Made by a program: the position numbers and the translations under genes. Below, piece by piece: positions 60,014 to 64,000 of a stretch of DNA of 64,000 nt. The stretch is from Dictyostelium discoideum. Taxonomy: Eukaryota. Within the stretch, counting starts at the first letter, position 1, and every line of letters starts with the position of its first letter. The stretch is from assembly GCA_000004695.1 (NCBI GenBank), contig CM000151.3, forward strand, positions 5,472,001 to 5,536,000, read 5' to 3'. Below the pieces are notes generated by a model. It saw only the letters and a program-made list of their open reading frames with translations, was not told the DNA's origin and made no database searches.

Positions 60014-61708
60014 AACTTATTTATTTATTTATTTATTTATTTATTAAGATAAGTTAAAAAATAAAATAAATTCTTTATCTTCATCATCATCTTCATCATC
60101 AGAAGGTTTACAAATTATTAGTATTAAAGGTACAGGTGAATTTTTAACAGTTGAATATCAACCATCATGTTCACCAAATTGTAATGGTAAATATTTCCCA
60201 ATGGATGTTACAGTTAAAGCATTGAATCAAGTAATTAATAATACAATTACTACAAGTAATGTTGCACCAAGTTGTACAGTTACAGATGGTGTACCAGTTT
60301 GTAAAGTTTCAGCAAATTCATTTGTTTATCAACCAAGTGAAGTTTCAATAACAGATACAGTTTCAAATCAAGTATTAACATGGGATCATCCAATTGTTTC
60401 ATTACCAATTGTATTACCACAAACTATTAAACAATATTACGGAATTCCAAACCATTATCAAGTTAGTCACCCAAATGCAACTCAATGTGTTGTTGAATTT
60501 GAACAACAATATTATTCACCAACTGATTTAGAACAATTTTTCAATAGTATGGGTTTACCAACCAATGTAAGTGTAAATGTAATTGGTTACAATGACGAAA
60601 CCAATCCAGGTGTTGAAGCATCATTAGATATTCAATATTTAATGGGTGTTGCTCCAAATGCACAAACTACATTTTGGTCAATCTATGCAAATACTTCCGC
60701 TGAAATTGATGATATCCTTCAATGGGCAGTTGCAATTTCAACCCATCCAAATCCACCATTAGTTAACTCCTTATCTTATGGTATGACTGAAGGTAATGTT
60801 GACACATATTTAGGTAATGGTTATATGGCAAGATCTGAAGTTGAATTTGCTAAATTAGCTGCTAGAGGTTTAACAGTTGTAATTGCAAGTGGTGATAGTG
60901 GTGCTTATGATTTAGGTGGTCCACCAATGGGTGCTAATGGTTGTGAAAATGTAAATCCAATTTTTATAATCTCTCTCTCTCTCTTGTATATACATATATT
61001 AATAATTTTTTATTTTTATTTTTTATTTTTATTTTTTAGGCAAGAGGTGATTGGCCATCAAATTCAGAATATGTTAGTGCAGTTGGTTCAATTTATTTTA
61101 CACCATATTCAGCACCAATTTGTTATGATTCAGTTTCAAGTGGTGGTGTAAATTGTCAATCACTTCCAATTGGTGAAGTTGGTGTTTCAATTGATTATGG
61201 TACAATGTGGACATCAGGTGGTGGTTTCTCAAATTTCACAGAGACTGCTTACTATCAAAAAGATTTCGTAAATGAATATTTAAATAAATTAAAAGAATTG
61301 GATGTTTCACCACCATCAAATCTTTTCAATTCAAATGGTAGAGCATATCCAGATTTTTCAACAGTTGGTAAGAATTTATATGTTATCAATGGTGGTGAAT
61401 GGTTATCAGTTGATGGTACATCTGCTTCTGCACCAATCTTTGCTGGTATGATTACAATTCTCAATGATATTAGATTAAATAAAGGTTTACCACAATTAGG
61501 TTTCCTTAATCCATTATTCTATCAAATCGCAAGAACAAATCCAGAAGCTTTCTATGATGTCGTCGTTGGTAATAATCGTTGTGGTCTCTCTGATTCTACT
61601 CCAGTTTGTTGTGATTTCGGTTATACTGCTACAACTGGTTTCGATACTGTTTCAGGTTTAGGTAGACCAGATATGTCTGTTTTAATGGAAATTATTGATC
61701 AATATTAA
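59426..61708 (+). CDS. Sedolisin / tripeptidyl-peptidase I-like serine protease (peptidase S53) with an N-terminal pro-kumamolisin activation domain and a signal peptide. Three exons: 59426..59957, 60049..60950, 61040..61708.
   Basis: Exon 1 ends ISHFPV + t|GTAAGT. Exon 2 after ttaAG (60047-60048) reads (Y)KLKNKINS...; it carries the SGDSGAYD Asp region and ends CEN|GTAAAT. Exon 3 after tttAG (61038-61039) reads ARGDWPSNSEYVSAVGS...WLSVDGTSASAPIFAGMITILND, the GTSAS catalytic-Ser motif of S53, then ...LGFLNPLFYQ (compare TPP1 LGFLNPRLY). Confidence 0.85.
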
Positions 61709-61837
61709 AAAATAAAATAAAATAAAATAATCAAAAAAAAAGTTTATGAATAATTATTAATCTTTTATTTTTTTTTTTTTTTAACAAACAAAATCATTTT
61801 TTTTTTTTTTTTTTTTTTTTTAAAACAAATTAAAATA

Positions 61838-61868
<31 letters not shown>

Positions 61869-61869
61869 T

Positions 61870-64000
61870 TTAAATATTTGGTGACATAATTAAAGAACCA
61901 ATTGAAATTGCAGGATTAATTTTATGAGCATATTTCCAAATTTTCTTTTGTAATAATTCAGGACCACCAAATTCAACATCCAAGATTGGATATTGTCTAA
62001 CATAAGGAGATGGATACTGAACACCTGCTTCAATTGCATTACCAAGATTTTCGTAATATTTAATATCTTTTTTAGTGGTGGCACCATCTTGATTGAAAAT
62101 GATAGCTTTTGCTTCTTCATCCCAAGCTTTCCAATGAACGTATGCATGAGAGAAAACAGCCTGATAAATGATAAATATTGAACAATCTCTAAGATCTTGA
62201 ATATTTTTAATTTCATTTGCACTTTTATCAGCATTTAAACAATGTTGAACTAAATCATCTGAAACCAGTTCAATTTCATTCCATACTTTTAGAGTATCTT
62301 CTTTATTCTCTAAAAACCATTCATCAACATATTCAGTGATTGCGTCCCAAATGGCTTGACTGGAGGTATCATAAACATGACCTTTAATTTTATCATTAAT
62401 TGGTGTTGGTCTCCATTTATAAGTTGTTTGACTGAATCTCTTTTGTAGCATTTGAACTTGACCTTCATATGTGAAAGCAGCAGCTTGAGTGACAACACCA
62501 TCAAGCATCGGTCTTACCACTAACCAATTATTAAATATTACACCATCGAAATGTGGATAAAGTAATTTCTTTATTGGATTATTTATAATATTTCTATAAA
62601 ATGCCATATTAAACATTTCCACAACAAAATGTACACCAACATGACCCCAATTAATATTATAATTAAATTCAACCATCATATATTTAACTTTTAAATCATT
62701 CCATTCTTTTGAATCATCAGCTTGTTGAACTATCCATCCATCATCACCATCACCATCACCATCACCATAATCATTCATTCTATATGCAATTGATTTTATA
62801 ATTAATTCATTTTCATTATCTTCATCATTATCATTATGATTTTCATTTTCCTTAAGTTTAAATCTACAACATGTTTCTTTTGGAAACCAAACATCTTGTT
62901 TTAATTCATATCCTGATAAATCCAATCTTAATTCATAGTTCCATTCACCATAGTTATTCTCTTTACAACTTTCAACTCTAACGAAATCATTGTATGGTCT
63001 ATTTGAGCCATTCAATCTTCTAGAGGTGAAAAGTTGGTCAGATACAATACTATTGTAAATTCCATTCTCGGCTGATCTAGTTTGAATATTTGGTGGTAAC
63101 ATCTCCATTGAATTCTTTTCACCACGTAGTAACCAATAGACTATAACAAATGCTACTACCATTTCATTAAATTCATCATGATGTACAAAACTGTCACTTG
63201 GCATTGCAAATTTTGGTATCTTTAAATCTGGATCAAATACTGGTAGCCTATCCCAATATCTTAATCCAAACTTTGCTACTGGTTCAATCGTTACTTCAAA
63301 TTCAATATTACCAATAACTTTTTCGCTTTGTGTCATCATTTCAACAATTGGTTCTAAAAATTTAATATTTTTTTTTTCCATTGAATTACCAATAATATCT
63401 TTACCAATTTTAACACTAATAATTGATTCTGTTGAATTAAATAAAATTTTATTTTCTTTTATAATTTTTAAATTAATTATAATTCCATTATTTCCAATTT
63501 TTTCCATTAAACTATATTATTAATTATTTTTTTAAAAAAAAAAAAAAAAAAAAAATTAATTAAGAGAAATAATTTTAAAATAAAAAAATAAAAATAAAAA
63601 CTTACAATTCCATTTTTGGATCATCAATCCAACTTGAATTAAATGATTTAAATCTGGATTCTGAAATTTGAGGTGTTGTATTTGATCCTTCTACTTCAAC
63701 TTCAATATGATAGTTTAAAGGATCATTAAATTTTGTTCTAATAACTTTTTTTTTTTTTTTTTTTTTTTTTATTTTATTAGTAAATTTTTTAATTAATATA
63801 ATAAAATAAAAATAAAAATAAAAATTAAAGAATAAAATAAATAAAAAATAATAAAAAAATTACTTTTTACAGTTGCAATCATTGGTATTAAATTTAATTG
63901 ATTTGATTTTTTATCTAAATATAAATCTAATATTTCTTTTCTTGTAGCTTTTCTAGCTTGTTTATCTGAATAATTAATTAATGATAATAAAAAATCTCTT
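61870..64000 (-). CDS. Lipoxygenase-like protein. At least three exons: >64000..63864, 63744..63606, 63511..61870. The 5' end lies beyond the window.
   Basis: Upstream exons: ...IPMIATVK + a|GTAATT; acceptor aaaAG (63746/63745); then (I)IRTKFNDPLNYHIEVEVEGSNTTPQISESRFKSFNSSWIDDPKME + tt|GTAAGT; acceptor atAG (63513/63512). Main exon reads (F)LMEKIG... Its C-terminal half aligns with the lipoxygenase catalytic domain: WGHVGVHFVVEMF (compare HQLxSHWLxTHxxxEPF), KKLLYPHFDGV (LLHPHF), CSIFIIYQAVFSHAYVHWKAW (TIIIWIASALHAAVNFGQY). It ends with a C-terminal Ile (...SLIMSPNI*, compare ...PNSISI*). Confidence 0.6.

Follow-up and report, generated by a model that had tools for sequence, protein, structure and literature searches.

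The Dictyostelium discoideum gene DDB_G0275577 encodes a real but very divergent relative of the lipoxygenases and, judging by which residues its relatives have kept, the protein is probably a metal-binding, active oxygenase. The gene lies on the minus strand at the far end of a 64,000-nucleotide stretch of the genome (assembly GCA_000004695.1, contig CM000151.3, positions 5,472,001 to 5,536,000 of the forward strand), which we call the window. An earlier note, made from the letters of the window, had proposed that a lipoxygenase-like catalytic region with altered metal-ligand spacing is encoded here, and had left it open whether the product is a competent enzyme or a non-catalytic protein of the same fold.

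The minus-strand open reading frame (ORF) at 61870-63507 comprises 545 codons. Splicing extends it to a 638-residue product that is identical to residues 13-650 of the D. discoideum AX4 protein DDB_G0275577 (P0010 in our set; XP_643408.1, UniProt Q86H96), whose database name is "Lipoxygenase domain-containing protein". The gene itself is thus not new, as databases already list it under this automatic name. All residue numbers given for individual ligands (H394, H398, H559, H563 and I650) refer to the full-length 650-residue protein. Its architecture consists of an N-terminal helix, followed by a C2 beta-sandwich and then the helical catalytic domain with the lipoxygenase fold:

61873..63264, minus strand: lipoxygenase-fold catalytic domain, full-length residues 187-650

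The catalytic region was recognised as lipoxygenase by every sequence-profile and structural comparison made against solved structures. A phmmer search of the sequences in the Protein Data Bank (PDB) returned 5ek8, the Cyanothece 9R-lipoxygenase, at E=2e-17, with further lipoxygenases at about 1e-4. When a profile was built solely from the 13 proteins of the H-x3-H clade described below, and so contained no canonical lipoxygenase, it gave 49 PDB matches, all of them (49/49) lipoxygenases and the best again 5ek8 (5.2e-47). Searched with a profile, 1.8 billion representatives yielded 847 proteins at E<=0.001, and a second homologue search with alignment A1 contributed zero additional proteins. 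Structure prediction, which the earlier note had proposed as a check, likewise supports a lipoxygenase fold: the AlphaFold2 (AF2) model reaches a predicted local distance difference test score (pLDDT) of 86.8 and a predicted template modelling score of 0.87, and its best 50 Foldseek matches in the PDB are lipoxygenases only (E=1.3e-19). Residues invariant across the superfamily, including W374 and R410, are retained in the clade. The similarity is far above chance level, and a chance resemblance was rejected because the sequence profiles, Foldseek and the AF2 model all lead to lipoxygenases. The proposal of a lipoxygenase-like catalytic region in a dictyostelid gene is therefore borne out.

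The candidate metal ligands are found in two histidine clusters and at the C-terminus of the protein:

62629..62643, minus strand: first ligand cluster, H394-V-G-V-H398 (GHVGVHF), with His codons at 62641-62643 and 62629-62631
62134..62148, minus strand: second ligand cluster, H559-A-Y-V-H563 (SHAYVHWKAW), with His codons at 62146-62148 and 62134-62136
61873..61875, minus strand: codon of the C-terminal Ile650, with TAA next; the main-chain carboxylate of this residue presumably serves as the fifth metal ligand

Relative to the canonical HLARTH, the first pair reads HVG-VH: MAFFT alignments of 10, 81 and 242 sequences leave a gap of one residue between its histidines, and so do HMMER alignments of the profile to solved structures. 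Since register is kept on both sides, at the upstream EF...H anchor and at the downstream E.Y.MA.YRN block, this is a true one-residue deletion rather than a shifted histidine. The earlier note had read the first pair as H-x3-H in place of H-x4-H, and the alignments agree. They also uphold its view of the second cluster, in that the third ligand, H559, aligns with the canonical His and H563 with the canonical Asn; this fourth position is Asn in most bacterial and plant enzymes and His in the Dictyostelium protein. The protein ends in ...SPNI, with the C-terminal Ile that the earlier note had stated, and this Ile650 falls in the aligned column where canonical lipoxygenases have their terminal Ile/Val. 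Every ligand position is present in the full alignment; missing positions would, by the note, have counted against a lipoxygenase. Across the 242 family representatives the two spacings divide as follows:

First cluster H-x4-H: about 224 of 242 representatives, with Asn (about 171) or His (48) at the fourth position
First cluster H-x3-H: 16 of 242 representatives, with His at the fourth position in 16/16

Thirteen of the H-x3-H proteins are monophyletic in a neighbour-joining (NJ) tree of 349 catalytic-domain columns (bootstrap 100/100, from 100 replicates). The clade has three parts. The first comprises seven dictyostelid sequences (100% support) which, with other strains counted, cover D. 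discoideum, D. citrinum, D. firmibasis, D. purpureum, Heterostelium album, Acytostelium subglobosum and one EukProt entry, the orthologues being 54-95% identical; all dictyostelid groups are represented. Four proteins on transcript-like contigs of about 2 kb, each a single ORF and eukaryote-like, form the second part (99% support); the third consists of two metagenome proteins of bacterial type from GC-rich DNA, one of which, P0119, sits on a compact contig of bacterial type. H394, H398, H424, H559 and H563 are invariant in 13/13 members, even though the most distant shares only 24% identity with the D. discoideum protein, and 13/13 chains terminate at one common alignment column. In this tree, whose deeper nodes have only 55-64% support, the clade is not nested in the cyanobacterial lipoxygenase group.

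The same spacing also occurs elsewhere in the tree. Three further proteins from metagenome and Logan contigs, the pair P0234/P0269 and the single P0261, combine H-x3-H with His at the fourth ligand position and end in Ile. As these sit beside H-x4-H proteins, the deletion probably arose more than once, and its three placements, combined with the unvarying His at position 4, make the variant look recurrent and tolerated. Among the eukaryote-like members of the clade, P0120 and P0136 begin with MGCGIS and MGNIRS, consensus starts for N-myristoylation (and palmitoylation), and these MGC/MGN starts suggest that the two proteins may be N-myristoylated; the dictyostelid proteins start with MEF and have no such consensus.

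Constraint on the gene can be read from its closest relatives. The ratio of nonsynonymous to synonymous substitution (dN/dS) over exon 3 is 0.25 against a divergent strain labelled D. discoideum and 0.17 against D. citrinum; the gene is under purifying selection. These values bear on the idea that the gene came by recent horizontal transfer, is a bacterial contaminant or is decaying as a pseudogene, without a conserved role in the dictyostelids. That the nearest canonical relatives are bacterial would fit such an origin, as would the two clade members of bacterial type, with P0119 on a compact contig carrying ExbD, P450 and hydrolase genes. Against it, the gene has two spliceosomal introns, an intact frame with the low dN/dS just given, and orthologues across Dictyostelium, Heterostelium and Acytostelium. 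A convergent sedolisin-like neighbour is also syntenic in D. citrinum and in the other D. discoideum strain, where the orthologous neighbours match Pro-kuma_activ and, weakly, Peptidase_S8, so that the two genes have kept their linkage. Finally, a scan of GTDB species genomes found 52 lipoxygenase loci, all of them H-x4-H, and H-x3-H with the scanned motif in none (0/52). The introns, the phyletic spread and the constraint thus exclude contamination, recent transfer and pseudogenisation, and we regard an origin of this kind as extremely improbable.

How far the protein is likely to be an enzyme has to be weighed against a number of contrary observations, which we collect here. The canonical H-x4-H spacing of the first cluster is replaced by H-x3-H, and the terminal residue, which is Ile in the dictyostelids, is Thr, Ser or Ala in the other clade members. 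The Pfam lipoxygenase model PF00305, the hidden Markov model (HMM) search that the earlier note had wanted made, finds no match even at E<=10 in the ORF, in the full-length protein or in the Heterostelium orthologue (P0005), and NCBIfam gives no match for the D. discoideum protein either. The segment following the PH motif is 2 residues shorter than its counterpart in the two cyanobacterial lipoxygenases that alignment A1 contains. Taken with a conserved clade-specific motif (VVRP, below), this means that the substrate pocket may be remodelled. A review of slime-mould lipids (PMC11900508) names as D. discoideum dienes 5,9-16:2, 5,9-17:2 and 5,11-18:2, and the linoleic acid row of its table lists myxogastrid species, D. 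discoideum not being among them. These three dienes are non-methylene-interrupted and carry no bis-allylic carbon, so this source gives no known endogenous bis-allylic substrate. Our literature search found no characterisation of DDB_G0275577 or of any dictyostelid lipoxygenase, and no experimental data.

Some of these points are what would be expected if the protein had kept the fold and lost the chemistry, that is, if the deletion had disabled metal binding and left a structural or lipid-binding role. The loss of the defining spacing, the failure of PF00305, the classical substrate not being known in D. discoideum (PMC11900508) and a shortened arched-helix region can all be counted in favour of a non-catalytic protein. 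The Pfam result, however, reflects a sensitivity limit of that model, because one clade member, P0120, scores above its gathering threshold (37.3 bits vs 23.6) and the other HMM and structure tests are decisive. Four histidines that stay invariant in 13 proteins down to 24% identity, with a fixed terminus column, are not expected of a dead site, and the dN/dS of 0.17-0.25 also speaks against a non-catalytic protein. Moreover, H-x3-H occurs in three places in the tree and always with His at position 4, which looks like co-adaptation rather than decay, and metal sites are often built from H-x3-H on an alpha-helix. We consider a non-catalytic role unlikely, and the conservation evidence favours a metal site that is likely to have been retained.

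The geometry of the first pair would be compatible with this. In soybean lipoxygenase structures the canonical His pair lies on a pi-helical stretch. Residues i and i+5 of a pi-helix are separated by about 410 degrees and 5.8 A, and residues i and i+4 of an alpha-helix by 400 degrees and 6.0 A; since the two arrangements are nearly equivalent, the change in spacing is plausibly neutral for geometry. A one-residue deletion with a return to regular alpha-helix would leave both imidazoles on the same face at a near-equal separation. In the AF2 model, DSSP assigns a single continuous helix across residues 360-399 of the window protein. A non-heme metal, most likely iron, would then be bound by the four histidines and the Ile650 carboxylate, and the presumed active oxygenase may be recruited to membranes through its C2 domain.

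This domain occupies the place where the earlier note had suggested that there might be a PLAT domain, in missing 5' exons beyond position 64000. That suggestion was not upheld. Only 12 N-terminal codons (MEFINNKINKVS) lie beyond the end of the window, and the N-terminal domain is within it:

63919..63996, minus strand: N-terminal alpha-helix, full-length residues 14-39, from AF2 secondary structure; conserved in the eukaryote-like clade members
63280..63882, minus strand: C2-type beta-sandwich, full-length residues 52-181, spanning both introns
63864..64000, minus strand, cut by the window end: exon 1, residues 13-57 of 650, with donor GTAATT at 63863
63745..63863, minus strand: intron 1, 119 nt, GT...AG, AT-rich
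63606..63744, minus strand: exon 2, encoding part of the C2 domain
63512..63605, minus strand: intron 2, 94 nt, GTAAGT...TAG, AT-rich
61870..63511, minus strand: exon 3, encoding the remainder of the C2 domain, the entire catalytic domain and the TAA stop (61870-61872)

The domain has the eight-stranded beta-sandwich fold of C2 and not the PLAT (LH2) beta-barrel found at the N-terminus of animal- and plant-type lipoxygenases. A PLAT domain beyond the window end was accordingly rejected. Pfam searches with the ORF, the full protein, an N-terminal fragment and the orthologues gave no PF00305, C2 or PLAT match in the Dictyostelium proteins; for the Pfam C2 model (PF00168) there is none for the window protein, and its relative P0120 gives a weak match that lies below the cut-off (E=0.02). 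The layout of helix, C2 domain and lipoxygenase domain is common to the eukaryote-like clade members. With C2 in place of PLAT, the lipoxygenase fold would have acquired an independent route to membrane targeting. Other enzymes that join C2 to a lipid-acting domain, such as cytosolic phospholipase A2, have a catalytic domain unrelated to that of the Dictyostelium protein.

The closest characterised relatives are the cyanobacterial 9R- or mini-lipoxygenases, some of them fused to a catalase-related domain; they include 5ek8, from Cyanothece sp. PCC 8801, and P0008/P0009, whose Joint Genome Institute name is linolenate 9R-lipoxygenase. They have in common with the Dictyostelium protein the YRN..NPI..LL.PH block, the W-x3-K motif, the third His and the terminal Ile, at 19-28% identity. 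They differ in having H-x4-H with mostly Asn at ligand position 4, in the longer segment (by 2 residues) after the PH motif, in passing PF00305, and in lacking C2, their N-terminus being absent, helical, catalase-like or laminin-G-like. Rabbit 15-lipoxygenase (ALOX15, 1lox) resembles the Dictyostelium protein in another respect. Its metal ligands are four His and the carboxylate of a C-terminal Ile, the same set as is predicted here, although it has H-x4-H and an N-terminal PLAT domain rather than C2, and is 14% identical. The substrates of ALOX15, arachidonate and linoleate, are not known as lipids of D. discoideum.

A possible precedent for the spacing comes from Myxococcus fulvus LOX1, an experimentally active 12S-lipoxygenase reported to carry an iron load of only 5.6%, whose first iron cluster is numbered His372 and His376 (PMC6612559). 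This numbering would mean H-x3-H; it could be a true precedent or a numbering slip.

Given these relatives, the protein might be an ordinary linoleate or arachidonate dioxygenase of the cyanobacterial 9R type, with cosmetic differences only, that acts on dietary or minor polyunsaturated fatty acids. Its closest characterised relatives are indeed such enzymes (5ek8; P0008/P0009) and every ligand position is occupied. Yet identity to the cyanobacterial 9R enzymes is just 27-28%, the clade is separate in the NJ tree, an N-terminal C2 domain sets the architecture apart, and none of the D. discoideum dienes named in PMC11900508 is methylene-interrupted. The pocket segment is also altered, and it includes a motif specific to the clade:

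62509..62520, minus strand: VVRP motif, with P438 invariant in the clade

By its position relative to the PH motif, VVRP would lie near the canonical stereo-control (Gly/Ala) and substrate-positioning residues. We find an ordinary dioxygenase rather doubtful. Since the D. discoideum dienes named in the review are non-methylene-interrupted, the probable oxygenase may have a substrate other than a classical 1Z,4Z-pentadiene fatty acid.

Taken further, the H-x3-H/four-His clade might represent a branch of the lipoxygenase fold that differs in function, having a non-bis-allylic substrate, an alpha-helical metal site and membrane delivery by C2; this is a tentative proposal which we can entertain without thinking it probable. 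In dictyostelids the candidate substrates would then be their own 5,9- and 5,11-dienes, another membrane lipid or a polyketide. Were it true, the fold would gain a new reaction class. In the literature we found no description of a conserved H-x3-H/four-His clade, of an architecture with C2 in place of PLAT, or of a mismatch between a lipoxygenase-fold enzyme and the lipid repertoire of D. discoideum; one study included a D. discoideum sequence, solely as a leaf in its tree (PMC10177866).

The probable oxygenase is of interest for several reasons. Both ligand clusters have been termed essential for true lipoxygenase sequences (PMC6612559), and a conserved, constrained H-x3-H clade means that such a two-cluster screening rule, like the Pfam model, overlooks real members of the family. 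In this clade, nature also offers a way to ask whether metal binding depends on the pi-helical bulge at the first His pair. As D. discoideum is genetically tractable, it could reveal the role of a lipoxygenase-fold enzyme that has no textbook substrate.

Within the catalytic domain there is one further feature of the gene, which is variable in length among strains and species:

62734..62853, minus strand: acidic/Asn-rich low-complexity insertion, KENENHNDNDEDNENE...DYGDGDGDGDDG

This insertion reads DGDGDGDD in AX4 and is an Asn run in D. firmibasis; it is absent from D. purpureum, Heterostelium and Acytostelium. The sole segment of the AF2 model with pLDDT <50 lies in this insertion.

The surroundings of the bacterial-type clade member P0119 (5001-6740 of L001 1-7573, a Logan ERR3200796 contig) contain four flanking genes. 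They encode a P450 fused to two cyclic nucleotide monophosphate (cNMP)-binding domains, an LCAT/esterase-like alpha/beta hydrolase, a methyltransferase and a 533-residue protein with no Pfam match; an ExbD gene is also present on the contig. The P450-cNMP-binding fusion and the LCAT/esterase-like hydrolase are compatible with lipid oxidation, and the region could be a lipid-oxidation gene cluster.

In the window itself, the convergent neighbour of the lipoxygenase-like gene is as follows:

60201-61708, plus strand: sedolisin/kumamolisin-like peptidase gene, with an intron near 60950-61040

Two fragments of this gene from the window, searched against Pfam, had no match. Between the two convergent genes, their shared 3' intergenic region (61709-61869) is made up of long homopolymers of A and T. 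Directly next to the stop codon of the lipoxygenase-like gene, at roughly 61840-61869, is an (ATT)n microsatellite with about 10 repeat units.

The orthologue in the assembly GCA_054859385.1 (L056), which is labelled D. discoideum, is 95% identical, with an exon 3 dS of about 0.09, and assemblies labelled 'D. cf. discoideum' fall in the same 90% cluster. Lineages that carry the D. discoideum name are noticeably divergent.

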